Below the pieces are notes generated by a model. The model saw nothing but the letters and a program-made list of their open reading frames with translations, had not been told where the DNA came from and did no database searches. A program made the translations under genes and the position numbers. A DNA stretch of 64,000 bases from positions 64,001 through 128,000 of the IMG/VR virus record IMGVR_UViG_3300021399_000003; one strand, given 5' to 3'. Source of the DNA: a virus. Taxonomy: Duplodnaviria > Caudoviricetes. Below are positions 8,314-26,931 of the stretch, one piece after another. The number at the start of each line of letters is the position of its first letter. Position 1 is the first letter of the stretch.

Positions 8314-8390
8314 TAGCAGGCGTGGCTGGATTTGAACCAGCGAATGCATGGGTCAAAGCCATGTGCCTTAACCACTTGGCTACACGCCTA
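8314..8390 (-). tRNA. tRNA-Gln(TTG)
   Basis: cloverleaf; CATGG-CTTTGAC-CCATG; GTTCAAATC T-loop; ends GCTA. Confidence 0.92.
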
Positions 8391-9108
8391 TAATTTTATT
8401 ATACCATTCTATTAGTTCTTTTTTCTTAGACGGAATATTATTTTTTACACACCATTTTACAACTGCTTTATCAGAAACTCCATATTTTCTGCCTACTGCA
8501 GAAAAACTAGATTCAACAATTTCTTTTGCCAGTTGAATACCTTGCGGGCGTGCAGATATTTTTTCTTGTCTTTCTTGTATTTTTTGTTCTTTTTGACGTT
8601 GTTTTTCGTTTCGAGCAATATCTATTAAAGACGGTCTAATAGGATAGATTAAATAATCTTTTCTCCAAGAAGCTCCACTATTAATTGCTCGAATAGTTCT
8701 TCCAGAAACATTATATTTTGCACCAATAATATCGCTATTATCTAATGTATTTTTTAAATCATTAACAATATTATTAAAAATTTCGTCCGTCATTTTAATT
8801 GCATGAGGAGCATTTTGACCACCTTCTGTTCGATTATATCCATTATTAAAACTGTCATAATAAGAAATCCAATATTTTTCTTTTTCATCTAATTCGGATA
8901 CAAGACATTCTTCTAATATTTCAAAAGAAAAATTATTTAATCCATACAATCTCATATCTTTATATAATGGATTATTATAATTGACTATATTATTACCTAA
9001 ATAATCTGTTCTATGATTTCTCCAACGAGTTTTAATATCTTGTGCTTGACCAATATAAACTAATCCATTTATTAAATTAGTTATTTTATAAATACCACAT
9101 TGTACCAT
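8380..9108 (-). CDS. GIY-YIG homing endonuclease
   Basis: GIYKITN..VYIGQ, R...H, E..WI, GYN..GG. Confidence 0.88.
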   Translation of the reverse strand: MVQCGIYKITNLINGLVYIGQAQDIKTRWRNHRTDYLGNNIVNYNNPLYKDMRLYGLNNFSFEILEECLVSELDEKEKYWISYYDSFNNGYNRTEGGQNAPHAIKMTDEIFNNIVNDLKNTLDNSDIIGAKYNVSGRTIRAINSGASWRKDYLIYPIRPSLIDIARNEKQRQKEQKIQERQEKISARPQGIQLAKEIVESSFSAVGRKYGVSDKAVVKWCVKNNIPSKKKELIEWYNKIIGV

Positions 9109-9136
9109 AATATCACTCCTATTTGTGATTTAAATT

Positions 9137-9205
9137 ATAATATTGGCTTAATGAATAGGCATTATTATCTCAAAAGTTAATTACTCTTTTGCTACCCAAT
9201 ATTAT
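9137..9205 (-). promoter_or_regulatory. structured anti-SD leader of homing endonuclease (copy A)
   Basis: 3-way junction shared with 10406-10462; loop CCTATT complementary to AATAGG of RBS. Confidence 0.6.
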
Positions 9206-9206
9206 T

Positions 9207-9283
9207 TGGTGCGAGTAGAGGTAGTCGAAACCTCATCTCCTGGGTGGAAGCCAGGTATTCGAGCTGTTGAACTATACACCTGC
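9207..9283 (-). tRNA. tRNA-Gly(TCC), imperfect acceptor stem
   Basis: CCTGG-CTTCCAC-CCAGG; T arm GAGGT-TTCGACT-ACCTC; ACCA end. Confidence 0.7.
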
Positions 9284-9466
9284 ATAATGCCACTTTAACC
9301 GCTGTGGCCGCGTGCTCCCCAGGTACGCTTGAATCAGAGGCGCGGGCAAGTCTATCAACAAAGTCGCAAAGCGACTTTTCCGCTCTTTCTACACATGGTA
9401 GATGAGCTATGTAGTAACCCCGTGTTTAATGAGCTTTCTGCACGCTACTCTGGCCAGCTCAATATT

Positions 9467-9624
9467 TGTGGTGTGCTATTACGCCAAATCTCATGTTCCC
9501 ATTATCCGTAGGCACATCATACTCAAAAGGGCGTTCCACAATCGTAGCCTTTTGATACATTTCGCACCCACGGGAGAACTTAGAACTCCTTAGCTGGTGG
9601 CTGCTTCTAAGCCAACAGTCCACA
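9467..9624 (-). ncRNA. 23S rRNA H43/H44 (GTPase-associated centre) mimic with 100-nt hairpin insertion
   Basis: TGTTGGCTTAGAAGCAGCCACCA...GAGT[insert]GCGTAATAGCACAC closed by TGTGG/CCACA. Confidence 0.65.
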
Positions 9625-9626
9625 TT

Positions 9627-9722
9627 TGGCGACAGGCTTCGGACTTGAACCGAAACATCAGTATATACTAATTACTCTCTGATTAGCAATCAGATGCCTT
9701 ACCAAATTAGGCTTAGCCTGTC
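9627..9722 (-). tRNA. tRNA-Ser(GCT)
   Basis: TCTGA-TTGCTAA-TCAGA; long variable arm; GACAGGC/GCCTGTC-GCCA. Confidence 0.88.
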
Positions 9723-10387
9723 TTATCATTATCTTGCCATTTCCAAATATAGCCATAAGCGATATTCCTTAGTCCTCGTGCGCATTGACTAATATGGTTA
9801 CTACCTGATTCTTTTCCTAAACTTTTTGCAGCAGAATAACAAGAATAAAATTTATTGATTAAATTACCATTTAAATCATATTGACATAAAATATTATAGT
9901 TATTTTTTATTTGTTTTTCATTAAATAAATCATTTTTTAATTTTATTTCTTTGTTCAAAATAGTAGATAAAACATTCTCTGCGGTATAATTTTCAATGAA
10001 AAAATTAACATTTTGATTTTTTTGTATAGGTGTAAAACTTAAAGTGATTTTATTAGAATAATTTTCACATTCTTGAACAGGAATTAAATAACATTGATTA
10101 TTAAAGTAAGTTGCAAATAAATCAATTTCATTACTAGAATAATTATGTTTAATGTTTTCTTTACCTGATGTTGTTAGACTATATAAATTAAATTCAATTC
10201 CAGTATCTTTTTCTTTACAAGTTTTTACTTGTATTTTTAACAATTTCAACTTAATATCTAATATCATATCATATCTGCAATCTTCTCCAATTGGAATGCT
10301 TATATTATATCCTAAAGAAGTAAGATATGCTTGACATAATAATTCTGTTGTGATTCCTTTAATTTTAGTATCTACCATTTTTATCAC
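9713..10387 (-). CDS. PD-(D/E)XK homing endonuclease with NUMOD1-like C-terminus
   Basis: KG..TE, RYDMILD..KIQVKT, EIDLFA, QYDLNG...AYGYIWK. Confidence 0.82.
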   Translation of the reverse strand: MIKMVDTKIKGITTELLCQAYLTSLGYNISIPIGEDCRYDMILDIKLKLLKIQVKTCKEKDTGIEFNLYSLTTSGKENIKHNYSSNEIDLFATYFNNQCYLIPVQECENYSNKITLSFTPIQKNQNVNFFIENYTAENVLSTILNKEIKLKNDLFNEKQIKNNYNILCQYDLNGNLINKFYSCYSAAKSLGKESGSNHISQCARGLRNIAYGYIWKWQDNDKTG

Positions 10388-10405
10388 TCCTTTGATAAAA
10401 CTTTG

Positions 10406-10462
10406 TAGGGCTTGCGAAGGAGCGCATTATCTCATCAGTTAATTACTCTGATGCTACCCCTA
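10406..10462 (-). promoter_or_regulatory. structured anti-SD leader of homing endonuclease (copy B)
   Basis: same junction consensus as copy A; loop CTCCTT complementary to AAGGAG RBS. Confidence 0.6.
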
Positions 10463-10606
10463 GTGCGCCATCACGGATTTGAACCGTGGACTCCTTGATT
10501 AATGGTGGAGACCGCCAGAATTGCACTGGCACTATCAGTTTGTTCCTTTACTTCAATGCGCTTGCAGTCCCCAAGTCAAGTGCTCTACCAACTGAGCTAA
10601 TGGCGC
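10461..10606 (-). tRNA. tRNA-Lys(TTT) split in the anticodon by a 70-nt tRNA-like insert (10503-10572)
   Basis: exon1 GCGCCATTAGCTCAGTTGGTAGAGCACTTGACTT + exon2 TTAATCAAGGAGTCCACGGTTCAAATCCGTGATGGCGCA gives canonical cloverleaf. Confidence 0.88.
10503..10572 (-). ncRNA. nested tRNA-like element, Ala/tmRNA-TLD-like
   Basis: GGGGACT/GGTCTCC acceptor with G3:U70, A73, CCA; T arm GCCAG-TGCAATT-CTGGC. Confidence 0.75.
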
Positions 10607-10607
10607 A

Positions 10608-10682
10608 TGGCGTCCTTACTAGGAGTCGAACCTAGATTTTGAACTTAGAAGGTTCAAGTCCTATCCTTTAGACGATAAGGAC
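10608..10682 (-). tRNA. tRNA-Arg(TCT)
   Basis: TGAAC-CTTCTAA-GTTCA; GTTCGACTC; GCCA end. Confidence 0.9.
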
Positions 10683-11008
10683 ATTCTTTTATAATATTTT
10701 TCTTCATCTTTTCCGCAATTATCACACCAAGGAAGAATCCAACCAGTAGAATATTTTGTAGCAGGTTGGCCGCAAACACAACACGTTCGTGCGCTTAATT
10801 CTTCGTATTTATTTTCAATTGCATCTATTTCACGCCAATAAGTCATATCACATCTTGCAATTACATCAAGACTTCCCCATTTCTCTTTTAGGTCACAAAT
10901 GTAATAAGTTGGGTCAATAGCTTCACACTCTTCTATCATTTTTCGCGCAAGTTCAATCCAACCAGAAGGAATTGAAGAAAGCCATTTATAATTATTTACT
11001 TGCTCCAT
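10661..11008 (-). CDS. hypothetical protein (KEKWGSL motif, C-terminal CxxC pairs)
   Basis: ORF; GW..L, KEKWG, CCVCG, CDNC. Confidence 0.65.
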   Translation of the reverse strand: MEQVNNYKWLSSIPSGWIELARKMIEECEAIDPTYYICDLKEKWGSLDVIARCDMTYWREIDAIENKYEELSARTCCVCGQPATKYSTGWILPWCDNCGKDEEKYYKRMSLSSKG

Positions 11009-11430
11009 TCTTTTAACTCCATACCATGCTCTTTAAACCACCGAATAAGAGGCCATCGTTCGGAACAAATATTATCATATTTTTCATAGACTAACAACGC
11101 AAAATCTACATCATTAAATTGTTCTCCAATTTTTATGGTCTCGCTTAATACTTGAAGATGCTCCATCAACATATTGAAATCTATTTTATCTAGTTGTTTT
11201 TTATATTCGTGCAGGAAATCACAATTATTTGGATGCTTAGGAGAGCACTTGCCATTACATAGCCCATCGCAACTCTTTCCGGGCTTCAGCGGTGGAATAT
11301 CTAACCAAATAATTCCATTTTGACTTCTTCCTTTTTGAAGCCATTTTGGATTCCAAACCGCAGTAGAAAGCCCGACCAAATTAGGCGGGAAGTTACGAAT
11401 TTGAGCAAAATAGGAAATATAAATCTTCAT
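10996..11430 (-). CDS. DUF488-like hypothetical protein
   Basis: IYISYFA, LLVYEK..CSER pattern. Confidence 0.55.
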   Translation of the reverse strand: MKIYISYFAQIRNFPPNLVGLSTAVWNPKWLQKGRSQNGIIWLDIPPLKPGKSCDGLCNGKCSPKHPNNCDFLHEYKKQLDKIDFNMLMEHLQVLSETIKIGEQFNDVDFALLVYEKYDNICSERWPLIRWFKEHGMELKEWSK

Positions 11431-11444
11431 AAAATCCTTTCATC

Positions 11445-11556
11445 TAGGCACATTATTTTCTATTGCCCTACCTGCTGGGCGACATGCTAAATTTAGCACA
11501 ATCGGACTCGAACCGATGACTCATAGATTACCTATGTAAGTTGCTGTGTGCGCCTA
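11445..11556 (-). ncRNA. Y RNA (YrlA-like), circularly permuted tRNA domain
   Basis: terminal stem AGGCGCA/TGTGCCT with ACAGCAA; T arm, loop-closed acceptor stem, then D arm. Confidence 0.7.
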
Positions 11557-11636
11557 TTTATTATAATTTTAATTCTGGTTTCTTATTAAATTTGGCTTGC
11601 GGTTCTGCGATTGGTTTTTTAATGAAAATCCAATAG

Positions 11637-11711
11637 TAGAGGTCCCGAGCGGCCATGATCCGCTAATTGAAGATTACAAATCTACTATTTTGCCAATTAA
11701 ATTACAGGACC
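11637..11711 (-). tRNA. tRNA-Thr(TGT)-like, degenerate T loop
   Basis: GGTCCTG/CGGGACC; GTAGA-TTTGTAA-TCTTC; T loop ATCATGG. Confidence 0.55.
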
Positions 11712-11717
11712 AAATTC

Positions 11718-11800
11718 AAGGCACTAATAATTTACTTTAATATACTATTCAAATCTATATTTGTATTTGTAATTATAAAAGTAATTGCTGTATGTGCCTT
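11718..11800 (-). ncRNA. Y-RNA-like family member
   Basis: AAGGCAC/GTGCCTT stem followed by ATACAGCAA. Confidence 0.5.
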
Positions 11801-11814
11801 ATTTGTAATAATAC

Positions 11815-11915
11815 TAAGCCGTTTATTGTTTAATTGTGATGGACTTGAACCATCTCTCATTTTGTTTCTCAATCAAAATAATTTATCCACTTAAAAAGAT
11901 TGCTGTGACGGCTTA
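11815..11915 (-). ncRNA. Y-RNA-like family member with internal T arm
   Basis: TAAGCCGT/ACGGCTTA stem, CACAGCAA, GATGG-TTCAAGT-CCATC. Confidence 0.55.
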
Positions 11916-11919
11916 AATT

Positions 11920-12147
11920 TTAAGATTTCTTAGAAATAAATTTCATTTCGATTTTAGTATTTGCGGGAATAGAATATAAATCAAAATAATCCGCGGGCAA
12001 TTGACACATAATACTAGAACCCTCAATAGTAAAACAATCACTATACTCTTCTTTATCATTCTGTTTAAGAGTATTCATAAGCCAATGATGAATTGACTTA
12101 ACAAATTCAGCTTTGGTTGCTTGCGCGGACAATTCTTTCTTATCCAT
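11920..12147 (-). CDS. hypothetical protein
   Basis: ORF with RBS and own sigmaA promoter. Confidence 0.6.
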   Translation of the reverse strand: MDKKELSAQATKAEFVKSIHHWLMNTLKQNDKEEYSDCFTIEGSSIMCQLPADYFDLYSIPANTKIEMKFISKKS

Positions 12148-12260
12148 AATATTTATTTCCTTTCCTTTGATATATTTATTATATCAAAAATTCTAGAAAA
12201 AGTCAAGAAAGAAAGGGGAAGATTTTACGGTTGGGATAATCTTCAAACCCAGTTTTTAAA

Positions 12261-12337
12261 TAGTCGGAATGACACGATTTGAACGTGCAACCCTACGCTC
12301 CCAAAGCGTATGCTCTACCAAATTGAGCCACATTCCG
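12261..12337 (-). tRNA. tRNA-Pro(TGG)
   Basis: TACGC-TTTGGGA-GCGTA; canonical arms; ends ACTA. Confidence 0.92.
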
Positions 12338-12338
12338 A

Positions 12339-12414
12339 TAGCGAGCCTAACAGGATTCGAACCTGCGATCTTCCGGGAGACAACCGGATATTCTAGCCGC
12401 TGAACTATAGGCTC
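12339..12414 (-). tRNA. tRNA-Asp(GTC)
   Basis: TCCGG-TTGTCTC-CCGGA; canonical arms; ends GCTA. Confidence 0.92.
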
Positions 12415-12427
12415 AAATTAGAGTGGC

Positions 12428-13012
12428 TTATGGCCACTCGCCTAGAGGCATACCAAGCCCCGCGCGCTCTACATTGGTATTATAAAATACACCTTCAGTA
12501 GCAGGGCCAGTTAGAAGCTCATCAGCAATAATCTCATATAGAGTACTAATAACACCATGACAATCATTTAAATTATCTGCCGCGAATTGTACTACGCAAT
12601 TATTAAATACTACATAAGTAGTTCCAATCCACTGATAGCCTTCTTCAGCAGGACATACAGAATATGCATAAGCAGGATTACCCTTGAAAGCTGTATCAAA
12701 CAATTCAACCTTACTGGTAAAAGCGCGGTTAGAAGGAATACCATCTACATTTACAGCCAACTTAATATTACCAAAAGAAACTTCTGAAGGAAGAATTTGC
12801 TGCAGTGCGGCGACCTTATCACCATTATTACATGCTAGAACAATAGAAGGATTAGAGCCGCCAAAATTACAATTACAAGCAATCTGTGGGTCACCATCAA
12901 ATAGAGCCTCAAATTTACGAATAGCTATAGTCCAAGGTGGTAGAATCTTTAGTCTTACATCACTCATTTTGTTTTCTCCTTTAATATGAATCGTAGAATA
13001 ACAAATAAACAT
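12428..13012 (-). CDS. hypothetical protein
   Basis: ORF; likely start MSDVRLK after AAGGAG. Confidence 0.65.
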   Translation of the reverse strand: MFICYSTIHIKGENKMSDVRLKILPPWTIAIRKFEALFDGDPQIACNCNFGGSNPSIVLACNNGDKVAALQQILPSEVSFGNIKLAVNVDGIPSNRAFTSKVELFDTAFKGNPAYAYSVCPAEEGYQWIGTTYVVFNNCVVQFAADNLNDCHGVISTLYEIIADELLTGPATEGVFYNTNVERAGLGMPLGEWP

Positions 13013-13397
13013 CAGGGTTATTTTTCATAAATGAAGCGATTAATGCCAAATTTATGATATCTTGCTGTAAAATAGGAAGTATTTCATCATAATCCCAAAT
13101 GGAATCACCATCTTCTTCCCAAGTTTCTTTGTTCATAAAAGAAACAATAATGCGAATTAGCTCAAATACTTGCTGCGGAGTTTCGATAAGATAGTCATAG
13201 CCAGTATCTTTATAAATTGGAAAAATATTTACTACCTTATTTCTTAAACCCCAATTCTTTCGCCAATAAAGAATTTCTACTCCTCCATCTTGATTATCAA
13301 ATTTTTCATCCAAAGGGTATACCATTCCTTCTGGTAGTATTTCACGCGTAATCTTGCGATGATTTGAGCGGGCAATTATACCATTATCCAATCCCAT
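12981..13397 (-). CDS. hypothetical protein (MGLD...YWRK family)
   Basis: ORF with RBS; MGLD/YWRK motif common in phage small proteins. Confidence 0.65.
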   Translation of the reverse strand: MGLDNGIIARSNHRKITREILPEGMVYPLDEKFDNQDGGVEILYWRKNWGLRNKVVNIFPIYKDTGYDYLIETPQQVFELIRIIVSFMNKETWEEDGDSIWDYDEILPILQQDIINLALIASFMKNNPDVYLLFYDSY

Positions 13398-13667
13398 GCT
13401 TATTACTCCTTTTATGAAATAGCTTTAAGATCAGCTAACCGCGCATCCGTTTATTTGCTATCGTGATGGTGATAGGCTTTTCTTAGGAACCTAACGAACC
13501 TATACTCTTTGCCAGCTACATTAGGCGGCTCATGGCACCGCTTATCCCCGTAGACCATTTTAGGGGTTCCTTCGTACTTCGGAAGGGCTAGCTCTCTTAT
13601 GTGACTTCGCGCGTTCACATAAGTGAGACATTGAGTAAGCATAGAGAATAAGTCCTCTATGTGACTA

Positions 13668-13744
13668 TGGCGGCCCGCCACGGACTTGAACCGCGGACAT
13701 CTTGCTTAACAGGCAAGCGCTCTAACCAACTGAGCTAGCGGGCC
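13668..13744 (-). tRNA. tRNA-Asn(GTT)
   Basis: CTTGC-CTGTTAA-GCAAG; GCCA end. Confidence 0.93.
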
Positions 13745-13812
13745 AAGGAGGTCCCGTTTATTACTCTAACGGGCAAGAGTGAGGTCATATCAAAGAACAC
13801 ACATTAGGGCAA

Positions 13813-14396
13813 ATACCCTATTTAATAAAACCGTTGCGGCCTTCGCCGTACTTGTATTATCCTTCTAACATATTCAACCACGTTGGAGATGAAGGCTGAG
13901 CCACGGGTAGCAATTCCGGACTTCTTCACCCCGTCTTTCGACCAACAACGGAGAGACTGTTTACTCTCAAATTTCACCTAAACCATTCAGCACAATAATA
14001 TCTAATCAAATCTATTAGATTCATTGTCGTTTTGGGCTACTTTTTCTGTGAACCTCGCTTATATCCTATTTCTAGGTTTCAACGACATCAAGCGTCTTGT
14101 TGGCATTTCCAAGGTTTGCGGTGGTAGCCAGCCACATCTAAAACGCCTAACTTGGATTCAGGTCACGCTTTTAACGCTCACCTTCTATTGCGACGCCGCG
14201 AGGAGCCAAGTTTTTGTTAGCGGATAACCAAGCACCTATCCTTAACATTAGGAGTTTCTCCATATCGCTAGTCATTACTGATTTCGCGGCCTTGGCTTGA
14301 AAGTATCCCATCAAGTTTGGGGCTGTTATTCAGATAGTCCAAGCAGAGTGGTTAGCTCTTCTTCACTTGGTTCAACCATTTTATTAAATAGGGTAT
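13813..14396 (-). ncRNA. large structured ncRNA, ROOL-sized candidate
   Basis: 584-nt ORF-free region closed by perfect 18-bp terminal helix; dedicated promoter at 14424-14452. Confidence 0.5.
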
Positions 14397-14423
14397 CTAC
14401 TTCCTTTCCTTGTTTCTATAATC

Positions 14424-14452
14424 ATTATAGCATGATTTTCAGAAAAAGTCAA
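14424..14452 (-). promoter_or_regulatory. sigmaA/sigma70 promoter
   Basis: TTGACT-17 nt-TATAAT with extended -10 TG. Confidence 0.75.
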
Positions 14453-14972
14453 ATATTAAAGTGAGCTGTTTTCATCGTGGCCGGTCCACTCTTATCCACG
14501 CTTTCTTGTACACCCCGGGTTCCCTTATACGGGTGCTCGCACCCGCCCAATATCACTGGGGAGCTCTTTGGCATTTCTACTCGCTGATCAGGACGGGAAA
14601 TGCGCTCTTTAATATTTATTGTAAAGATTAGTCTCAACTACGCCACCAGACGGGCTTATAAGAAGCAATCAAATGCTCTGATTATTTGGTTAGTTGATTA
14701 ACAGCATCGCCACGAGAAGGCTCTTTACTTGATGCCGTAACATCCTAGGATTTGTTCGCTGAGTATTAAGTCCAATAACGAGTCAGGACTCCTAGAATGT
14801 GATAGTTACAGCGGTCGCTACATACGGTTAGCGCCGTTGGCCTGGCTTCTTTTATTTTATAGTCGCGTTTTCCCAGCGTAACTAACAAACGAATGTTAAC
14901 GCGACTTGTCACATTAGCGGGAGGTGACTTGCGTCTGATAGGTTATCATCGCAAACCATTCAGACATAAACT

Positions 14973-15037
14973 AGGCGGATTTTTAGCTATATAGTTTACA
15001 AAATCTATTGCTTAAATAATAGTTGCTGTGGCCGCCT
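14973..15037 (-). ncRNA. Y-RNA-like family member
   Basis: AGGCGG/CCGCCT stem, CCACAGCAA. Confidence 0.5.
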
Positions 15038-15211
15038 TGTATCTTATCATTGTAAAGAATTGAGACATATAAATTGTGCTAAAGGACTTGCACCTTTAGG
15101 AGCAGCGACTGACTTGATTGCGCACATCACATCAGTAGGGCTTTAATCATAATCTTCTATTTTCCACTCAACTGCTTTTTCATACTCTATGTTTTTAAGA
15201 GATTTTCTTTT

Positions 15212-15285
15212 TGTTCGAAGCATTGCGATTTGAACGCAACCTTGCCCCTCACAGCGGGGCCGTGCTGCCGCTACACTATACTTCT
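15212..15285 (-). tRNA. degenerate tRNA (loop GCTGTGA; His/Thr ambiguous)
   Basis: D arm GTGT/GCAC, GCCCC/GGGGC stem, T arm TTGCG-TTCAAAT-CGCAA. Confidence 0.55.
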
Positions 15286-15628
15286 AATCTCTGCCGCACC
15301 ATAATTAGGCTGTACGGGCCTTAATATATGGGTTGTACGTGCGACACATTTCATATGGCTTTATACTCACTACACAATTTTTCTTACATATTTATTATAG
15401 CAGATTTTCTGCTAAAAGTCAATTATTTTTCTTTTCTATTTTGTCAACAACTGGTGCCCATTCGCCGCAACCTTCACATAGCCAAGGCTCTTCAGAAAGA
15501 ATAATTTCTTCATCTTCTTCAACTGGGCCAAATAGTTTTAGAAAACAATCTTTACAAAACTCTGCCATTTTATTATCCTTTCCCTTTACTATAATTATTA
15601 TACTATAATTTTAAAAGAAAGTCAAATA

Positions 15629-15844
15629 CTACTTAGTTGGAATCCAAGAAAACTTTCCGCGGCCTCCGTTCCACGCCTGATTCTCTTCTACAAGTTCAAA
15701 AGATGCACAACTACTCTCCTTAAAATAACCATCACCATATTTTTCAAATAGATGGTCAATAGTATCCTGATAAATAACGTTATCTATATTTTTATAAAGC
15801 TGGTCAAGAAGATATGATAGCTAGCCCTTAGTTAATGCTTGCAT
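15629..15844 (-). pseudogene. 71-codon ORF interrupted by in-frame TAG at codon 8
   Basis: AGAAAGGA RBS, MQALTKG*LSYLLDQ...WIPTK*. Confidence 0.5.
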
Positions 15845-15900
15845 AATTGTTTCCTTTCTCTGCTATAATTATTATACTATAATTTTAGAAGAATGCCAAA

Positions 15901-15978
15901 TGGTAGCACCGATGGGATTCGGACCCATACTGAAATCATTTTGAGTGATTTGCCTCCTGCCAATTGGGCTACGGTGCC
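15901..15978 (-). tRNA. tRNA-Leu(CAA), short variable loop
   Basis: AATCA-CTCAAAA-TGATT; ACCA end. Confidence 0.85.
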
Positions 15979-16084
15979 ATAATGGTTATTGTTCCACTAT
16001 CAACTACTTACAGGGTTCTCTTACCCAAGCCATATTACTTCTAATCAGTTTATATAGGACGTATGAAGTAAGAACAGTAGTCCT

Positions 16085-16218
16085 TGGTGCCCCAGACGGG
16101 ACTTGAACCCGTACACCCTCACGGATAGCGGATTTTGGTCGTGGGAAGGAGTGCTGCTCTCCAACAAGCCACTGGGCCCACGTAAGTCCGCTGCGTCTGC
16201 CAATTCCGCCACCAGGGC
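16085..16218 (-). tRNA. tRNA-Leu(TAA) split in the anticodon by a 47-nt minihelix-like insert (16136-16182)
   Basis: GCGGA-CTTA|AAA-TCCGC restored on removal; Leu D loop GGAATTGGCAGAC, long variable arm, ACCA. Confidence 0.88.
16136..16182 (-). ncRNA. nested tRNA minihelix-like element
   Basis: CGTGGG/CCCACG-ACCA; T arm GGAG-AGCAGCA-CTCC. Confidence 0.7.
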
Positions 16219-16938
16219 ATAAAAACCTGATGTAACCCTCACGCAGCTAGATGGTTACTTTGAATAGTACTTTAAGGTATACTGCTAATATATAGGCTAT
16301 CAGGCGTAGCCTTAACAAGTAAATGTGTGGTTGTTCGATATTTGCTCCTTTTATTTCTGAACCACACTAAGAAGCCCTTAAATCGACACTCCTCGAACAG
16401 GGTGCGTCCGCGACCATCACGCCGCTATGCATTGTTAACAATGGGCGATTTTTATCGTTGTTCGCCGCAACTACCTAGGTAATAAGTCTCCTAGTGGTGC
16501 GCTTCTTTGAGAGGCGTAAGGAGAACATTTGCGGTGGCGCCTCACAATTAACCGCAATTTCCCTTATAAAGCCCAGTGGGTGGACTCTGGCGCCGAAGTT
16601 TTATTTTCTAGTTTGTGGTGAACTTCAAACCCTTTATAAACTCCATTAATTGCTTCATACTAGAAAAGTAATTAATTTCATCGTTTCATAATCATCTTGT
16701 GATTATGCCGAATACGCTTTCACGTATTCTAAAACTCCTTGTACGCTTGGTACATGAGATAGCGGTGACGCCCTTCAAAAGTACTGGCCGCAATTTTTCG
16801 TTCAGCGTCTAATCCTGCCACTCATCAAGCTTTTCAGCTTGCTCACGGCGAGTCCAAGAAGAAGAAAATACAGTACGAGAAGTCTTACGCACAACTATCA
16901 TTCCTTTCCTTGTTTCTATAAATATTATATCACAATTT

Positions 16939-17313
16939 CTATTCTTCGTCAAATAATTCTTTTAGTTGATTTTCACCATTTTGAATTTTACGTTTATCTG
17001 CGGGAGACCAATTTTTAGAAGGATTATAATTTCCATAGGCATTACGATGTTTGCCCTTGTTATTAGTCTTATTCCGTCTTTGATAATAAAATTCTGGTTT
17101 AGTTTTTGAATAGTAATGAATGGGCTTAAAATATTCTAGAAATTTTTCGCCCCATTTTTCGCGCAATAATTTATAGTTGCGCTTGGCATGACGCCAATCA
17201 TTTTTTCTTTTTTGAGGAGATTCGTCTATATGAATCTCCTCTTCATATGTATACCAGTCATTTCCAAATTCATCACTTTGAGGGCCAATAAGAAAATCAT
17301 CAAATTCTTCCAT
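16939..17313 (-). CDS. hypothetical protein
   Basis: ORF with RBS and promoter. Confidence 0.6.
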   Translation of the reverse strand: MEEFDDFLIGPQSDEFGNDWYTYEEEIHIDESPQKRKNDWRHAKRNYKLLREKWGEKFLEYFKPIHYYSKTKPEFYYQRRNKTNNKGKHRNAYGNYNPSKNWSPADKRKIQNGENQLKELFDEE

Positions 17314-17370
17314 AAATGATTTGCTCCTTTCCTCTTACTATAATAATTATACTATAATTTTTATAGAAAG

Positions 17371-19086
17371 TCAATCATTTATTCTATAATATTTTATCGG
17401 GACAAATTTTTCTTCCTCTAATTCTTGTAAAAATTTATTAATATTAGCATTAATTTTAGAAATATTATAAAATCGTTGTTTCATTTGAACTAAACAACTA
17501 TGATAACATAAAGACAAAGTTTTTGGAGCGATTTTCATATATTGACGATAATGATTAAAATAAAAGTTTTGAATTATATTCCACTCATCTTCAAGTAATT
17601 CCGGACGTTCATAAGCGATAGCAATAAAGAAGAAATATTCTTGTGCTAAAATATAATTATATTCATCAATTAAATTTTCTATTTCGACATTATTATTTTT
17701 AGCAATGTTTATTGCATGAAGTCCATTGATAATAATTCCTTTACTTAATTTAGTATAGAAAAATTCATTATTATTTTTTTTCGTTAAGGAATTTTTATTA
17801 ATGTGTTCATAGAGAACAGGAATTTTAATTAACTTTGTCATAGGCCAAAATCCATACTCTTCTAACTGATTTAAAATTATTCTACAAGCGCGGCTAAAGC
17901 CATAATCTTCATTAGCATATGATCCTTCTTTATTAAAATGAATATTATACATTTCAATAAAAGAACGTTTATATACAGTACCAATGGTTTTATCATCTTT
18001 ATAGTCAACTAAAATATTTTTATCATCATATACATACGACCAATCATACATTTTAATATAAGTATTTTGTTGAATTTGATTTAAAATAATATTTATACCA
18101 TTTTCATAAAAATAATCGCCTGTATCAACAAAAATAAAATAAGTTCCATTACTATGTTCAATACCAAACTGTCTTGCCATTCCAGGCCCTTGATTTTTTT
18201 TGAGTTGATATAACTGTATTAATGGATATTCATTAATAATATCAGTATAATCTAAATTAGAACAGTCATCAATAACTATTGTATTAATTTGATTATAATT
18301 TTTAAAATCTTTAGTAAAAATTGAATTTAATGTTCTTCTTAGTTCTTTTTTATTTTTATATGTAGGGATGATAATATCTAATACTATATTATCTTGCTTG
18401 TTTCGTTGAATTTTTTCAATCGGTAAATTTTTATAATAATTAAAATGAGGAAAATTTTTTAATTTATAAATGCCAGCAAAATGAGTAATTTTTTCATGTA
18501 TAGGCTCATTTGCTTGTATACAACAATTATAATCCGCAGGAAGAATTAAAACTTTTCCTCGTAATAATTCATTGAAACAATCTTGTTCTTTATATCTATA
18601 CCAATAAGTATTAACCGCATTAATTAATTCGTCATCTTTTTTATCTTCTCGCATTTTATGTAAATTTAACATTACTACACCCATATTAAAATAAGAACCT
18701 TCTTTTTCAGTCAGAACTCTTTCTTCAACTGCGGCTAGATAATAATTGGATAAATCAATTTCCCATAAATCAGATATATTTTCATTTACTATTGTATCCA
18801 TATCAATAGATAAAATTTTATCTAAATGTGGAAAAAATTTAGTATAGGCCGCGCGCAAAAGAACCATATAACTTAAAACATTATCATAATTAGGTCCTGT
18901 TGAAGGGAAATATTGCTGGTCACTAATATTTATACACTCTATTTCTGCTGGAAGTGAATAGGGAAAAATATCATCTTCTATAAGAAAATATATTTTTTCT
19001 ACATTTGAATGTTCGAGTAATGATTTAGCGGAGGTTAACATATTTTCGTATATATTATGCGTTCCACTATAGACAGCCGCGTTCAT
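17371..19086 (-). CDS. bifunctional glycosyltransferase GT8 + GT2
   Basis: DMDTIV, YFNMGV, EQD, HFAG (GT8); IIIPTY, IDDCS, GPGMARQFG (GT2). Confidence 0.85.
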   Translation of the reverse strand: MNAAVYSGTHNIYENMLTSAKSLLEHSNVEKIYFLIEDDIFPYSLPAEIECINISDQQYFPSTGPNYDNVLSYMVLLRAAYTKFFPHLDKILSIDMDTIVNENISDLWEIDLSNYYLAAVEERVLTEKEGSYFNMGVVMLNLHKMREDKKDDELINAVNTYWYRYKEQDCFNELLRGKVLILPADYNCCIQANEPIHEKITHFAGIYKLKNFPHFNYYKNLPIEKIQRNKQDNIVLDIIIPTYKNKKELRRTLNSIFTKDFKNYNQINTIVIDDCSNLDYTDIINEYPLIQLYQLKKNQGPGMARQFGIEHSNGTYFIFVDTGDYFYENGINIILNQIQQNTYIKMYDWSYVYDDKNILVDYKDDKTIGTVYKRSFIEMYNIHFNKEGSYANEDYGFSRACRIILNQLEEYGFWPMTKLIKIPVLYEHINKNSLTKKNNNEFFYTKLSKGIIINGLHAINIAKNNNVEIENLIDEYNYILAQEYFFFIAIAYERPELLEDEWNIIQNFYFNHYRQYMKIAPKTLSLCYHSCLVQMKQRFYNISKINANINKFLQELEEEKFVPIKYYRIND

Positions 19087-19098
19087 TTGGTTTCCTCC

Positions 19099-20046
19099 TT
19101 ATTCAACTGGGACATTTATATATTCCAAAACCTCACGCAAACCAAGTCCACCTTCATCCCAAGATCTCATACAATATTCCCAAATTTTTGGATGAGTTTC
19201 TTTTAATTGTTGAAAACGATTAGGACATTTTTCTCTATGGCACCCAAAACCACAGAAAATACATCCAGTGCGGTGAATACCAGTTGTGGTCCAATTTCCT
19301 TTTTTGTCCTTGACAATATCACCATACAATGAACAATATGGAATTTCAAATTTAGTTATATATTCAAAAATATCATTATCTGTCCAAAATGAAATAGGCT
19401 TACTAGTCGGCTTTTTACTATCAAATAAATTACATCCACTACGCATCCATTCATTACGACGAGCAATGGATTCACAGGCTAATGTTCCAAGAATTGGAAA
19501 GCGTCCAGTTTCTTTAGAATAATGGTGATTTGGTTGTTTTTTCATTACATCGCAGCAGTAATCACTAATTTTAAATGGAGCATCTACTAAGAAATTCCAT
19601 TTGCCATTACCAAAGCCAAAAATTTTACTGTCATATTCGCCACTAAGAAATTTAGCCCGAGCAGAATTAGGATTACGTTTAGCGGTAGCCACATATCCTG
19701 CTATTTTTTTACTAACAATAGGATAACCAAATTCTTCAATAACCTGCCTGAATGTTTTTTTAGGACGAATTACCTCTACATTTTCATGTGATTTTACAAA
19801 TTGCTTAACTTCAGGATATTCTAAACCGGTATCAATAAAAACAGCAGGACAATTAGGCCATACTCGCCGCACTAAATCAAGTAACACGGTGCTATCTTTT
19901 CCGCCACTAAAAGCTACAAATATTTTATCTTCACCTAATTTAAGTCCATACTCAAGTATACGGGTTTGAGAAACTTGAATTTTACGTTCTAATGGCCATT
20001 GTTGCATTTCTTTTAAATCAGTAGCAGTATACTTATTTTCTGCCAT
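19099..20046 (-). CDS. PAPS reductase-family protein
   Basis: FSGGKDS PP-loop, DTGLEY, CCDVMKK, RTGCIFC. Confidence 0.85.
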   Translation of the reverse strand: MAENKYTATDLKEMQQWPLERKIQVSQTRILEYGLKLGEDKIFVAFSGGKDSTVLLDLVRRVWPNCPAVFIDTGLEYPEVKQFVKSHENVEVIRPKKTFRQVIEEFGYPIVSKKIAGYVATAKRNPNSARAKFLSGEYDSKIFGFGNGKWNFLVDAPFKISDYCCDVMKKQPNHHYSKETGRFPILGTLACESIARRNEWMRSGCNLFDSKKPTSKPISFWTDNDIFEYITKFEIPYCSLYGDIVKDKKGNWTTTGIHRTGCIFCGFGCHREKCPNRFQQLKETHPKIWEYCMRSWDEGGLGLREVLEYINVPVE

Positions 20047-20187
20047 AATTATACACCTCGCTTTATTTATAATAGGCCTGGGCCTACCTTTATACATAAT
20101 TATAACAGAAAATAAAGAAAAAGTCAAGTATTTACTTGACTTTTCTTTAAGAAGGCCGTTTGAATATTAAGCTTTAGAAATAATGAA

Positions 20188-20258
20188 TACTGCGTAGGGG
20201 AATTGAACCCCTCTGTCGAGATTGAAAGCCTCGTGTCTTACCACTGGACTAACGCAGC
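20188..20258 (-). tRNA. tRNA-Glu(TTC)
   Basis: CGAGG-CTTTCAA-TCTCG; AGGGG-TTCAATT-CCCCT. Confidence 0.85.
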
Positions 20259-20323
20259 ATATTGCGGCTTTAAGCCAGCCGCACGGCTGATTCGATTATG
20301 GCGATTTATAATGTTTATAAATA

Positions 20324-20965
20324 TTATGTGCTATTTTTATCGTATATCATATATTCCCATTTATATCCGCCAGTAGTCTTACGTTTTCCATTACATACTT
20401 CTTGAATATGATTACTGCGGCAACCAATAGCTTCTGCTGCCTCTCGTGCCGAAGAATACACTTTAATTAATGTACCATCTTTTAATAACTGTTTAACAGG
20501 TTTACTATACAAATGTTGCATAGTTTGATAACCTCTTAATATCCGTTCTTGTGATGGAATATCTTTTAAAGCTTGAGATACTGTTGTATCACAATATCCA
20601 GTAATTTCTTTAATAGATTTTTTACTATATCCCTCATTCCATAAATTAATAATTAATTCATAGCTGGCATAAGGTTTTCCATCGCCGCCAATAGTAGCAT
20701 TATAACCATTAGAAAATGAATTATAACTTTCAATCCAAAAACGTTCTTTTTCATCTAGTTCTTCCAAAGTGCATTCTTCTACTATTTCAATATGAAAATT
20801 TTCAATTCCATATTTATTCATGGCAGAATATAATGGACGATGTTCTTTTGATGACCGTTTTGCGTCTTTACAATGTTCTTTCCAACGACGTTCAATAGTA
20901 AAAGCAGTTTTGCCAATATAAATTTTTCCATTAATATCATTAATAATTTTATAAATGTATGGCAT
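20324..20965 (-). CDS. GIY-YIG homing endonuclease with NUMOD1-like C-terminus
   Basis: YIYKI..YIGKT, RWKEH, GYN..GG, GGYKWEY. Confidence 0.87.
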   Translation of the reverse strand: MPYIYKIINDINGKIYIGKTAFTIERRWKEHCKDAKRSSKEHRPLYSAMNKYGIENFHIEIVEECTLEELDEKERFWIESYNSFSNGYNATIGGDGKPYASYELIINLWNEGYSKKSIKEITGYCDTTVSQALKDIPSQERILRGYQTMQHLYSKPVKQLLKDGTLIKVYSSAREAAEAIGCRSNHIQEVCNGKRKTTGGYKWEYMIYDKNST

Positions 20966-21488
20966 AGTTAAATACCTCCTATTTATAATAGGACTAAAGT
21001 GGTTTGATTATAAAGTATAGTTTACTAAGTTCATAGATAAACACTTCTCCCAATCCACTTGAGTCCTGAAAATTCAGGAAATTTTAAAATCTGTGTCTAC
21101 GGACACTTCCTCCCGAATCAATAACATTTGATAACCCAGCTGCCTACTGGGGAGCCAGGGTAACTTTGCTACAGGTGCACCGGTATTACCGCTCATGTCG
21201 CTCCTAACGACTTAATTACATAAATCAACCGGTTGTTTTAAATGAAGTGTCTTCTATCATAGGTCATGACTTCTATGGCAGTTATTACTTCATTTAATAT
21301 GCTGTATTTAATTGGTTTTTCCTATTTATATAGCGCCGATAAGACCATTTGGAGTAACAGTTTGCTCTCCTTTTGCGCTCTAACTTATATTGCACCCTCT
21401 GCTTCACAGGAATCGAACCCGATATAAGTTAGAAACTTATCTTTTAGATAAGATTAAGTTTTTCACAGATAAAACTTTAAAAACTGGC

Positions 21489-21561
21489 TGGTTGCAGGGG
21501 TGGTTGCTGCCACCACGGAGTCTGGTTTATGAGGCCAGATTGAATACTGATTCTCCCTGCA
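21489..21561 (-). tRNA. tRNA-Met(CAT)-like, non-canonical D and T loops
   Basis: TGCAGGG/CCCTGCA-ACCA; CTCATAA loop; T loop GGCAGCA. Confidence 0.65.
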
Positions 21562-22042
21562 TTATTTGGTGAGTTCCCTCACCTTGTATAATAATTATAT
21601 CAAAATTTTTAATAAAAGTCAAGTATTTTCTTCAGCTAAAATGTCCTTAATTTCCTCATCACACATACAATCTTCACATTCATATACTTTTACGGTATTT
21701 ACATTAGTTTTTCCGTAGTAGTCAACTATTCTATCTACCGCAGCGCCTAACGTTGTTCCTATAGTAAATCCGCCCTCTGTATGACAAGTTTTATCAATTT
21801 CATCCCAAAATTCAATTATATAACGCACTATCATAATATTTTCTCCCATATAGTATAAATACTATTATCGTCATATTGATTATTAGAAAATTGTTTAATC
21901 AGATCAATTGAAGTCATATGTAAAAGTCCATCTGAAGTTTTCCATGAAACCATTTTATTCTGCATTTTATTCTTATCTGCGGCGATAAGAATAATAAAAT
22001 CTTTAATTGTTATTTTTTCTAGTCCGCGTACTTTATTCCATC

Positions 22043-22693
22043 TCATACAAACTCTTTCATATCTTCCCATTTAATTTTTACAATTATACGTTCGCCGCGA
22101 CGATTGCGCAATTCAATAGCAGGTCTACATACTACTCCTTCCATTTCACGTTCCTCTTCCGCGATTACAGAATTAGGATGGGTCTTTACATATTCTTCTG
22201 CTGCGTATAAGGAACCAGTGCCTACAATAGGCACAGCCTTAATTCCGAACATTTTTGCAGTTGTTTCTACCCATTCGCGCTCCTGATAGTTATCGCCAAT
22301 AAGCACATCAAAGAGAATAAAATCTACACCGTTGGGAATATACTTTCCACCGCCCTTCTGAATCTTGCGGCCATAACCTTCACCGAAAAGAATAACTTCC
22401 TTTTCGCCAAAAACCTGTTCAAAAATCTGAGCATTAACCTCACCGCCGAACAACTCATTCAAACGAGTAACAAGTTCTGCGGGAATAGCAGCATTATCGG
22501 TGCGACCACCAAAGGTAACAGTATGGCCATCCCAACATACGCGAATGTTAGTGCCATCAACCTTCTCAGTCCAAATCCAGCAATTATCGCTGAGATATTC
22601 TATAGTTGGGTCACGAAATACTCCCGGAAGTAGCTTTTTAGTTCCAGTTGTGTCTCTTTGATAGAGAGTATCAATCTTTTCATACTTTCTCAT
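22043..22693 (-). CDS. ATP-dependent RNA ligase (Rnl2-like)
   Basis: TEKVDGTN motif I, FGEGYG, FDV, EGVV, KIK. Confidence 0.82.
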   Translation of the reverse strand: MRKYEKIDTLYQRDTTGTKKLLPGVFRDPTIEYLSDNCWIWTEKVDGTNIRVCWDGHTVTFGGRTDNAAIPAELVTRLNELFGGEVNAQIFEQVFGEKEVILFGEGYGRKIQKGGGKYIPNGVDFILFDVLIGDNYQEREWVETTAKMFGIKAVPIVGTGSLYAAEEYVKTHPNSVIAEEEREMEGVVCRPAIELRNRRGERIIVKIKWEDMKEFV

Positions 22694-22755
22694 GTGTTTT
22701 GTTCCTTTCTACTTACTATAATAATTATAGCAAAAATTATATAGAAAGTCAAATA

Positions 22756-23109
22756 TTAAATTTCCTTATATCCATAATGAGTAAGAAGTTGCCGCATATT
22801 TGCGACACCAACAGGATTCATGCTATGGATATGAAAACCTACAAGTGGAATTTGATTTTCTACAATATATTTACAAATATCATAACCTGATTTAGCAAGA
22901 GTGTCATCTATTTCATGCCCTTCACCCAAATCATGGTCAAGGTCAATAATTATATTATAAAACTCCTCATTATAATAGTTTAGAAAGAAAATTGCTTCTT
23001 CTACGCTACGGCAAGTAATAGGAATCCATTCCATATGGGTATAGTTACCCAACGTCTTGAAGAAAGTATCATCTTCACGAATATCATCTACATAGATATA
23101 AATATTCAT
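22756..23109 (-). CDS. cyclic-phosphate-processing receiver-domain protein
   Basis: YVDDIR, DLDHDLG, SGYD, IHSMNPVG. Confidence 0.75.
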   Translation of the reverse strand: MNIYIYVDDIREDDTFFKTLGNYTHMEWIPITCRSVEEAIFFLNYYNEEFYNIIIDLDHDLGEGHEIDDTLAKSGYDICKYIVENQIPLVGFHIHSMNPVGVANMRQLLTHYGYKEI

Positions 23110-23179
23110 ATCTCTCACCCTTTCTATAATTATTATACTATAATTTCTATATTTAGTCAAGAAAAAAGAAGATGAACTT

Positions 23180-23965
23180 TCATTCATCTTCTTCTTTCAC
23201 TAAATATTCATCACTAAATAACATTTCAAGAGTAATATTATCGCGTTCCCAGTATGGAATGCGAACGAGAGGAATGTTGTGGGAAAGGGCGTATTGATTT
23301 TTTTCTTTATCGCGTTGCTGCTGCTCTTTTAATCCATTTCGTGCCTGCCATTTGCCCCATGTTTCTTGATAATGTTGAATACCATCAAATTCAATTAAAC
23401 GGATTAATTCATTATTTTTATTATATATTCCAAAGTCATACCAATAAGGATGTTTATTTTTTCCTAGCAAATTATCAAATCGTACTTCAGGTTTAAAATT
23501 GATATTATTTTCTTTTAAAATTTTTGTTATATTAACTGCTCCAACTGATTTTTCTCTTTTTATACACCCACAAGAAATCGTATGTAAACTACGTAAATTA
23601 TTAGCATCTACATCGCATTCATTTCCGCAAGCACATTTACAATGCCATATGGCATTTTGACTTATGTTACTTCCAGTTTTATAAAGAGCAGTTAAATATC
23701 CAAATGTTTGACCAGTAATATCTTTAGTTAATTTATCACCTATAATTTTACTTTTCATACATCCACAACTGGTATCTCTTTGTAAATTACGAAAATTCTT
23801 TACACAATAATTTCCGCAATGTTTACATAAACAATTCCAAAAGGTATGAGTACCTTTGTTGGGAGCTCGTCCTATTATTTTAAAATTCTCATCTTCATAT
23901 CCAGTTCTATCTTTAAGTGTATTACCTGCTACACCATTAAACCACTGTAATTCTTCATATAACAT
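23180..23965 (-). CDS. putative homing endonuclease (Cys-rich repeats + Vsr/DUF559-like nuclease)
   Basis: CxC.CG/SCGC repeats, YDF, IEFDGIQH, RD..K, RIPYW. Confidence 0.7.
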   Translation of the reverse strand: MLYEELQWFNGVAGNTLKDRTGYEDENFKIIGRAPNKGTHTFWNCLCKHCGNYCVKNFRNLQRDTSCGCMKSKIIGDKLTKDITGQTFGYLTALYKTGSNISQNAIWHCKCACGNECDVDANNLRSLHTISCGCIKREKSVGAVNITKILKENNINFKPEVRFDNLLGKNKHPYWYDFGIYNKNNELIRLIEFDGIQHYQETWGKWQARNGLKEQQQRDKEKNQYALSHNIPLVRIPYWERDNITLEMLFSDEYLVKEEDE

Positions 23966-23989
23966 AACATCACCTAAAAGAGCCCGTTC

Positions 23990-25522: not shown

Positions 25523-26142
25523 ATTTTATTTCTCCTTTTCATTTGGTCAGCCCTGGACTAGGGCTCGTTTCTTTCTTACAATATTATTATAGCAGAATTT
25601 TTAGTAAAAGTCAAATAATTTTTCTTAAATGAAATCGCCAAATTTTTCTCTTTTGCTTTATTTCATTACGCTTGGATTTTTCAGTAAGATGAAAAAATTG
25701 AGCTTGCAATTCATTGAATTCTTGCAGCAACTCAGTATGCGCTTGCTGTAATTCATTAAATTTTTCTTTATATTCTAATCCAAACATTTATTGCTCCTTT
25801 GGTCCAATATAGGTATCCCAAATATATTGTAAAACTTTTTGCTCCGCTCCCTTACAGCCATAATTCATACGATAAATGACATCTACTGGTGCTTTTCCAA
25901 AGAAAACGCGATAAGCATAATTGTATACGTCTTTCATCGCATCATATAAATTATCATCTTGAATAAACATAATTACTCCTTAGTAAGTTGTGTGGGAGAA
26001 ATTGAAAACATTTCATGCGTTCTCGTGTCCTCTACATAACAAATCATTCCTTTTTCAGTTAAATTAATATCTAATATTTTTCCGCCCTTCATGAATCCGT
26101 CATACCAAAATTTAATTGAATCAAACTTTTTAATATCTTCCA

Positions 26143-26604
26143 TTATTCATGTTCCTCCATAATTTTAGCGGTGTTTATTAAAATTTGAGTCAATTGATTA
26201 CTAATGCCAAAACGTTTGGCATTAATTTCTATACTTTTAAGTAAATTACCCGACTGTTGTCGTTCAGCAGATGCTTTCCAATCAGCCATCATTTCAATTA
26301 AATCTAACAAAGACATGTCATTTATGCCTTCTTTCCAATGCTGTGGATGGTGTTTATTTACGGCATAATGATGGTCAAGTGCTGGTTTAAGTGCCTCTAA
26401 TTCTTTTTTATATTCTTCTGAGCCATATTCAATTTTATTCAAATTTTCTGTATGTTCTGCGAATAATTCTACTTCAGGAGAGACTAATTTACTAGCATCA
26501 TGTTCTACACCACGAGTAGTTAATCTATCAGTAAAAAAGCGGATATACTTACGCACTTTTTCTATGTGCTTTTGAGTTTCCACTCTACATTCGTCAAGTG
26601 TCAT
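26143..26604 (-). CDS. HD-like (DUF5662-type) protein
   Basis: HDASK, HHY..NKHHPQHW, EMMADW. Confidence 0.7.
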   Translation of the reverse strand: MTLDECRVETQKHIEKVRKYIRFFTDRLTTRGVEHDASKLVSPEVELFAEHTENLNKIEYGSEEYKKELEALKPALDHHYAVNKHHPQHWKEGINDMSLLDLIEMMADWKASAERQQSGNLLKSIEINAKRFGISNQLTQILINTAKIMEEHE

Positions 26605-26861
26605 TGTTCTTTACCTCCGAAAGGATAAAAGCCTTGAAAGCATTATATCTTATGAACCAATAGTCATTTATACTATTATAGAAAGATACTCCTTCTTTCT
26701 TTTCTTCAAAATTATGAATATTTTCAAAAGTTTCTCGATTGTTATCAGTGTTAATAAAAATAACGTTCATAAAATGCTCCTTTTCTTTTATATAATAATT
26801 ATACTATAATTTCTACTAGAAGTCAAATAGAAAAAACGCACGGTTTCCCGTGCATTTTGAA

Positions 26862-26931
26862 AGCGTCCGGTCAGTGCTGCCCTGACTATCAAGCGGGTTA
26901 CAGCCGCCGTTTGCTGATTCGGTACGGACGC
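26862..26931 (-). tRNA. tRNA-Tyr(GTA)-like, non-canonical
   Basis: GCGTCCG/CGGACGC; GGCGG-CTGTAAC-CCGCT; T loop GGCAGCA; no long variable arm. Confidence 0.6.

Follow-up and report, generated by a model that had tools for sequence, protein, structure and literature searches.

A 47-nt element within the tRNA-Leu(UAA) gene of a phage is proposed here, with a probability of about 0.5, to be a protein-spliced, tRNA-shaped intron of a functional tRNA, one that would be released by RNase P and by a cut directly after its CCA, with a phage ligase rejoining the exons. The gene lies in the window, the whole stretch of 64,000 nt that was analysed, taken from positions 64001-128000 of an IMG/VR virus record that is 169,459 bp long and has direct terminal repeats. 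The gene and its parts, by position in the window, are as follows.

16085-16218, minus strand: interrupted class II tRNA-Leu(UAA) gene, 134 nt, with CCA encoded at 16087-16085 (Rfam, ARAGORN, alignment)
16183-16218, minus strand: 5' exon, comprising the acceptor 5' strand, D arm, anticodon stem 5' strand, and C32 U33 U34 A35
16136-16182, minus strand: tRNA-like minihelix insert (intron), 47 nt, from helix base 1 to the A of CCA (covariance model)
16177-16182, minus strand: 5' strand of the acceptor-like helix, CGUGGG, pairing with 16145-16140
16163-16176, minus strand: 14-nt linker with the family CAGUG motif, in place of the D arm, anticodon arm, and variable loop
16148-16162, minus strand: T-arm-like hairpin, with GGAG at 16162-16159, loop AGCAGCA at 16158-16152, and CUCC at 16151-16148
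16147-16146, minus strand: UU between the T-like stem and the acceptor-like 3' strand
16140-16145, minus strand: 3' strand of the acceptor-like helix, CCCACG
16136-16139, minus strand: discriminator A and CCA, abutting the 3' exon
16085-16135, minus strand: 3' exon, comprising A36 A37 A38, the anticodon stem 3' strand, long variable arm, T arm, acceptor 3' strand, and ACCA

The outer gene (16218-16085) scores 40.6 bits with the Rfam tRNA family (RF00005), whose gathering score is 29, and the match contains an insertion of about 50 nt in the anticodon loop. Its body is that of a typical class II tRNA-Leu, in which the variable arm is long, position 73 is A, and CCA is encoded, and it can be aligned with uninterrupted Leu(UAA) genes in related phages. 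When the insert is removed in silico, the loop becomes CUUAAAA and ARAGORN calls an 87-nt tRNA-Leu(taa). In its default mode ARAGORN misses the interrupted gene; in intron mode the gene is found and the intron misplaced. The original prediction of a 47-nt tRNA-like insert in tRNA-Leu(UAA) is borne out by Rfam, by ARAGORN after removal, and by the covariance model described below.

The phage genome has a GC content of 35.7%, and all long open reading frames of the window are on the minus strand. A tRNA island at about 8-28 kb of the window contains ROOL and drum RNAs, several homing-endonuclease genes, and RNA-repair genes. The ROOL RNA is full-length (298 bits; 13818-14394, minus strand). The drum RNA (60 bits; 16591-16686, minus strand) precedes the interrupted tRNA-Leu gene by about 370 nt, and a near-consensus sigma-70-type promoter is found still further upstream at 16952-16924; the sigma-70-like promoters of this region do not identify the host.

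The insert resembles half of a tRNA. In the window copy, helices of 6 and 4 bp are separated by C.U and U.U mismatches at their junction, giving 12 stacked positions, and the helices of relatives have 7 and 5 bp where the window copy has the two mismatches. The 7-nt loop AGCAGCA (family consensus GGCAGCA) is no canonical T-loop of the UUCRANY type. The acceptor-like helix, the T-like hairpin, and ACCA are therefore present as had been claimed, whereas a true T arm is not. Taken on its own, the insert is called as a tRNA by neither ARAGORN nor Rfam, and it would be unable to decode because it has no anticodon arm and no D stem. The single-sequence fold of the insert is not better than that of shuffles (z = -1.23), and the case therefore rests on comparison. 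The minimum free energy fold of the whole precursor retains the outer cloverleaf and the insert helix. A pairing of the linker with the loop region, as given by the single-sequence minimum free energy fold, has zero covariation and was rejected for the T-like arm.

For the comparison, viral contigs were searched by neighbouring protein and by DNA patterns; a first loose pattern gave mostly chance matches, and a tighter one was used. A covariance model built from nine homologues recovers 15 distinct family sequences in uncultured phages, at 47-67 bits, and matches the window site at 53.7 bits (E ~3e-11), its sole match in the 169-kb genome. The identical 47-mer is found in contigs L015 and L020, where the outer tRNA differs at two bases. 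The insert of L006 is also 47 nt long, so that the window copy, earlier described as minimal, is not singularly short. Across the 15 members, 96.6% of the cells in both helices are standard pairs, compared with 30-43% when partners are slid by one to three columns, and double changes occur in 11 of the 12 pairs. These are both-sided changes in all seven pairs of the acceptor-like helix and double changes in four of the five pairs of the T-like stem. In bacterial genomes, none of the at least 120 listed matches to the family pattern was in a tRNA context on a check of stem and flank, and these matches give no hint of the host.

The motifs CAGUG and GGCAGCA(C), the discriminator A, and CCA are invariant or nearly so across the family. 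Acceptor-like stems have only 0-6 of 14 bases in common with the window copy, except for that of L006, which occupies the same site and agrees at 9 of 14. In the unpaired linker and loop, identity to the window copy extends to as many as 19 of 21 positions, a value reached by L002, whose insert is at another site. Since linker and loop are more conserved than the stems, selection acts on something beyond generic RNase P recognition, and these unpaired parts probably serve as a compact mimic of the elbow or as the binding site of a specific factor. No conserved aminoacylation identity element was found in the acceptor-like stem of the family alignment. The same figures, together with the missing T-loop, make the claim that the insert has shrunk to exactly the processing determinants too strong, and descent from a full tRNA by shrinkage is not supported.

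All 15 distinct members begin with helix base 1 and end with the A of CCA. They occupy three positions of the anticodon loop, 32|33, 34|35, and 35|36, and the tRNAs that they interrupt are of at least three types: Leu(UAA), Ile(UAU), and Sup(CUA). The insert follows C32 in L002, L009, L116, L144, L146, L150, and L152; U34 in L012, L029, L148, L160, and the Ile(UAU) gene of L066; and position 35 in the window, L006, and the Sup(CUA) gene of L147. Excision in silico restores the 7-nt loop of uninterrupted homologues. Because the insert ends are the same at three exon positions, they are set by the insert and not by the exon position. Insert-defined ends of this kind are the expectation for a route through tRNA end-processing enzymes.

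At the window site itself, the DNA leaves the position ambiguous by one base, A35|A36 or U34|A35, and A35|A36 is chosen only by the rule that the insert extends from helix base 1 to CCA. The predicted position after A35 holds under this rule; the DNA alone also allows U34|A35. An enumeration of all excision boundaries with ARAGORN was uninformative, many of them yielding "a tRNA", and boundary placement consequently rests on uninterrupted homologues. The anticodon arm in its uninterrupted form is common to 55 phage contigs. No near-identical intronless allele of this exact tRNA was found among the viral contigs, where the best overall match was 73/87.

The window linker most resembles those of copies that are inserted at different sites and in a different tRNA, an argument for movement between sites. 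No target-site duplication was seen in the junction sequences. The suppressor tRNA(CUA) that carries the family after position 35 (L147, 4500-4700) belongs to a 122-kb phage, and its outer tRNA has the T-loop GGCAGTA, so the unusual loop type exists in bona fide phage tRNAs.

The 3' end of the insert is equally constant. Discriminator A and CCA are invariant in 15/15 family members, and all three inserts of the window end in ACCA; CCA is encoded by 149 of 276 ordinary tRNAs in related loci and by 6 of 15 free-standing or outer tRNA genes in the window phage. By this comparison, the CCA of the insert family is selected. The original prediction that selection acts on excision and not on decoding agrees with an insert that has no decoding arms, whose helices covary, whose CCA is invariant, and whose ends are insert-defined. 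Two tRNA-like inserts of other families, in L005 (10489-10607) and L008 (15733-15866), have no CCA and end in the tails AA and AC, respectively. They are exceptions that any model built on RNase P and CCA must explain.

In the proposed route, the outer cloverleaf of the precursor would fold with the minihelix projecting from the anticodon loop. Host RNase P would read the coaxial acceptor-like and T-like helix together with ACCA and cut 5' of 16182, which would leave a 3'-OH on the 5' exon. A second endonuclease, for which an RNase Z/BN-type enzyme or a phage factor are candidates, would cut exactly after CCA, 3' of 16136. The Rnl2-like phage ligase would then reseal the anticodon loop, with end-healing by cRec and PNK-HD if needed. 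Cuts by RNase P and RNase Z-type enzymes leave 3'-OH and 5'-phosphate ends, the substrate of ATP-dependent RNA ligases. The end chemistry would fit, since RNase P gives the 3'-OH and RNase Z-type enzymes the 5'-phosphate.

Minihelix model substrates of bacterial RNase P, attributed to McClain, Guerrier-Takada and Altman in 1987, reportedly consist of an acceptor stem, a T stem-loop, and a 3' CCA. At the level of sequence the insert corresponds to such substrates, in that its acceptor-like and T-like helices are coaxial over about 12 positions and its 3' tail is RCCA, here ACCA. It is unlike them in being natural and nested in a tRNA, and in having a non-canonical 7-nt loop, a conserved 14-nt linker, and two junction mismatches. 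The weak point of the RNase P route is its second step, since an endonucleolytic cut right after an encoded CCA is non-standard in bacteria, and in Bacillus-type hosts RNase Z is blocked by CCA. Also against the route are the conservation of linker and loop far beyond the textbook need of RNase P, the lack of a canonical T-loop, the shortening of the window helices to 6 + 4 bp with two mismatches, and the CCA-less inserts of other families in L005 and L008.

Candidates for the enzymes that would complete the reaction are encoded in the window.

22043-22693, minus strand: Rnl2-like RNA ligase with the nucleotidyltransferase domain only, 216 aa; candidate sealing enzyme (PF09414)
22756-23187, minus strand: cRec domain protein, directly upstream of the ligase (Pfam PF20274, E 2.2e-16)
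61027-61911, minus strand: fusion of polynucleotide kinase (AAA_33) and HD domains; candidate end-healing enzyme (Pfam, PHROG)

The ligase matches Pfam RNA_ligase PF09414 (E 2.9e-16) and PHROG 548 (RNA ligase), with a weak match to the T4 Rnl2 structure 1s68, and its gene is located in the tRNA island, 6 kb from the interrupted tRNA-Leu. Ligase-domain frames in related phages have 394-490 aa, as opposed to 216 aa here, and the shorter protein may therefore lack or have lost a C-terminal domain. Phage T4 repairs the anticodon loop of tRNA-Lys after PrrC cleavage by means of Pnkp and Rnl1. With AAA_33 + HD, cRec, and the PF09414 ligase, a heal-and-seal set of the T4 type is complete here at the domain level. 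In T4 a phage kinase/phosphatase and a ligase reseal the anticodon loop, a role that is predicted for cRec, PNK-HD, and the Rnl2-like ligase in the window phage; T4 mends damage by a host nuclease, whereas here the break would be programmed by the intron. The cRec domain is predicted to resolve 2',3'-cyclic phosphate ends and has a known link to RNA ligases (PMC7824862). The phage also encodes a Thg1-like protein and a Ro60-like protein. An open reading frame beside the repair genes (23180-23965, minus strand) is homing-endonuclease-like by PHROGs and was set aside as no repair enzyme.

Searches of the phage found no RtcB, EndA (PF01974), RNase Z-type metallo-beta-lactamase, RNase P RNA, or group I intron, so the nucleases would be host enzymes or unrecognised phage proteins. 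The PF09414 ligase is present in 13 of the 15 related records searched, and in 8 of 8 at 78% completeness or more. The ligase-bearing relatives include L013, whose 12-kb locus has no insert. Because the ligase is present with or without inserts, it is permissive and not diagnostic.

The repair genes lend themselves to a different reading, which we consider rather unlikely. A dedicated phage or host endonuclease would recognise the CAGUG / GGCAGCA elbow, with T4-type repair co-opted for splicing; both junctions would be cut to 2',3'-cyclic phosphate and 5'-OH, and cRec and PNK-HD would heal these ends before the Rnl2-like ligase seals them. The cRec gene adjoins the ligase gene upstream and the PNK-HD gene is in the window, and together they suggest the handling of cyclic-phosphate/5'-OH ends, which RNase P does not make. 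A near-invariant linker and loop alongside freely varying stems is what would be expected of a sequence-specific protein site, and some related inserts are without CCA. However, no candidate nuclease was found, and the phage has no member of the EndA or metallo-beta-lactamase families. For the repair genes, defence against host anticodon nucleases is an obvious alternative role, and such genes occur also in a phage without an insert at the searched locus. Finally, the invariant ACCA and the boundaries at mature tRNA ends are the prediction of RNase P-type recognition.

The conservation of linker and loop beyond structural need could also mean that the minihelix is itself the useful product, for instance as a decoy or ligand of a protein that binds tRNA in defence or repair, the Ro60-like protein being one candidate, with the outer tRNA mainly a scaffold for its folding and processing. 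This appears improbable. A small RNA with the same GGCAGCA arm (26931-26863) adjoins the Ro60-like gene, as the idea would have it. A scaffold, however, needs neither exact restoration of the loop to CUUAAAA at three insertion sites nor an anticodon that matches a class II Leu body, and the acceptor stem of the minihelix has no conserved identity element. A useful product would in any case be compatible with splicing and not exclusive of it. The small RNA itself is free-standing and tRNA-like, on the minus strand, with a 7-bp closing stem, an internal arm, and the T-like GGCAGCA arm, and it has no CCA. It is placed between the Ro60-like gene and an interrupted tRNA-Ile gene and is followed by a terminator hairpin and U-run (region 26832-26931). 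By its location, it may be a Y-RNA-like partner.

The excision route takes the outer tRNA to be functional, and the exons bear this out. Excision yields a perfect cloverleaf with the expected 7-nt loop in 10/10 interrupted alleles, and between alleles the acceptor, anticodon, variable, and T stems differ by compensatory changes. The interrupted gene is the one Leu(UAA) gene of the phage in ARAGORN intron mode, and UUA is its commonest Leu codon, at 46%. Interrupted genes make up 3 of the 16 tRNA genes and serve the major codons UUA, AAA, and AUA; the latter two, read by the other interrupted tRNA genes, amount to 72% of Lys codons and 29% of Ile codons. The compensatory changes, the sole Leu(UAA) gene, and the use of these three codons make a dead gene unlikely. 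As judged from the divergence of the alleles, the exons of the interrupted tRNA-Leu are under selection.

It is accordingly very improbable that the insert is never removed, that is, that a selfish element has inactivated the gene and the host tRNA-Leu(UAA) decodes. Homing-endonuclease genes throughout the tRNA island do show that mobile DNA is active there. Against this, widely diverged interrupted alleles keep every stem by compensation and the exact split loop, the phage has no second gene for its commonest Leu codon, and three tRNAs for major A-ending codons are interrupted in one genome.

A self-cleaving or self-splicing RNA, either a small ribozyme or a degenerate group I intron, is scarcely credible: to our knowledge, all bacterial and phage tRNA introns of known mechanism are self-splicing group I introns, and the tRNA genes of relatives hold probable group I inserts, but 47 nt is too small for a group I core (P3-P8, usually at least 200 nt), no Rfam ribozyme or intron matches even at E up to 10, and the fold supported by covariation is a plain two-helix minihelix. 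The inserts in question, of 174-175 nt, are in tRNA(CUA) genes of L002 (13263-13529) and L005 (5713-5975). They are probably group I by their size and are located in the same tRNA islands as minihelix introns. The group I intron of tRNA-Leu(UAA) in cyanobacteria and plastids is likewise an anticodon-loop intron in the same isoacceptor, unlike the present 47-nt element, which has no ribozyme core.

Splicing of tRNAs by enzymes is considered a feature of archaea and eukaryotes. There, an EndA-type endonuclease recognises a bulge-helix-bulge motif, two 3-nt bulges at the splice sites with a 4-bp helix between them. The protein-dependent logic of cutting and ligating is alike, and the geometry differs, as the insert has its 5' site at the foot of a 6-bp helix and its 3' site 4 nt past that helix. 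As tRNA is all that Rfam finds at this locus, and group I introns, EndA, and RtcB are lacking from the phage, neither self-splicing nor the archaeal route is open here.

Excision of tRNA-like structures from longer RNAs by RNase P and RNase Z is known from mascRNA in MALAT1 and from the "tRNA punctuation" of mitochondria. The insert locus gives a weak Rfam match to mascRNA (E = 1). In all of these, a tRNA-shaped element serves as a pure processing signal, or would do so, with ends made by the enzymes of tRNA end maturation. The flanks are not rejoined in the known cases, whereas here they are tRNA halves in need of ligation.

The closest precedents come from large phages. Lak megaphage tRNAs carry "enigmatic" introns, one of them possibly encoding a tRNA (Devoto et al. 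2019, PMC6784885), and introns in jumbo-phage tRNAs "could encode another tRNA" (2026, PMC13037316). These reports describe short inserts in the anticodon region, identical in sequence across samples and in some cases tRNA-looking (PMC6784885, PMC13037316), and the window insert is of the same description, a short anticodon-loop insert that is not group I and whose 47-mer is identical in L015 and L020. They report occurrence only, with no mechanism. Here, by contrast, the phage is of 169 kb and the insert is a half-tRNA of 47 nt that lacks an anticodon arm, with a defined family, covariation, three insertion sites, and the rule that the insert extends from helix base 1 to CCA. The literature search found no mechanism, minihelix form, or family analysis for phage tRNA introns. 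The insert is thus a variant of a barely described kind of intron and potentially a new splicing route.

More broadly, it may be that bacteria infected by phage possess protein-dependent tRNA splicing, in which mobile tRNA-shaped introns are released by two enzymes, RNase P and a 3' endonuclease directed by CCA, before phage ligase rejoins the exons. This generalisation is a tentative one, held at somewhat less than even odds. If true, it would be a third and very simple splicing logic, in which the intron is half a tRNA, its ends come from tRNA end-processing enzymes, and a phage ligase rejoins the exons. It would also add a housekeeping function to the RNA ligase and repair genes of phages and explain why standard tRNA finders miss essential phage tRNAs; 3 of the 16 tRNA genes of this phage are interrupted. 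As the boundaries coincide with the ends of a mature tRNA, the introns may even have entered by a reversal of this process, in which a mature minihelix was ligated into an anticodon loop that had been cleaved.

The other two interrupted tRNA genes of the window carry larger inserts. The tRNA-Lys(UUU) gene (10606-10464, minus strand) has a 69-nt tRNA-like insert after U34 with a near-canonical T-loop. In the tRNA-Ile(UAU) gene (27404-27254, minus strand), a complete CCA-ended tRNA(CUA) is inserted after U34. Both outer genes, together with those for Gln, Thr, Pro, and Asp, have CTA in place of CCA after the discriminator, a total of 6 of 15 genes, and such CTA 3' ends (8316-27404) are far commoner than chance. 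The TAG stop is used in only 3 of 68 long open reading frames.
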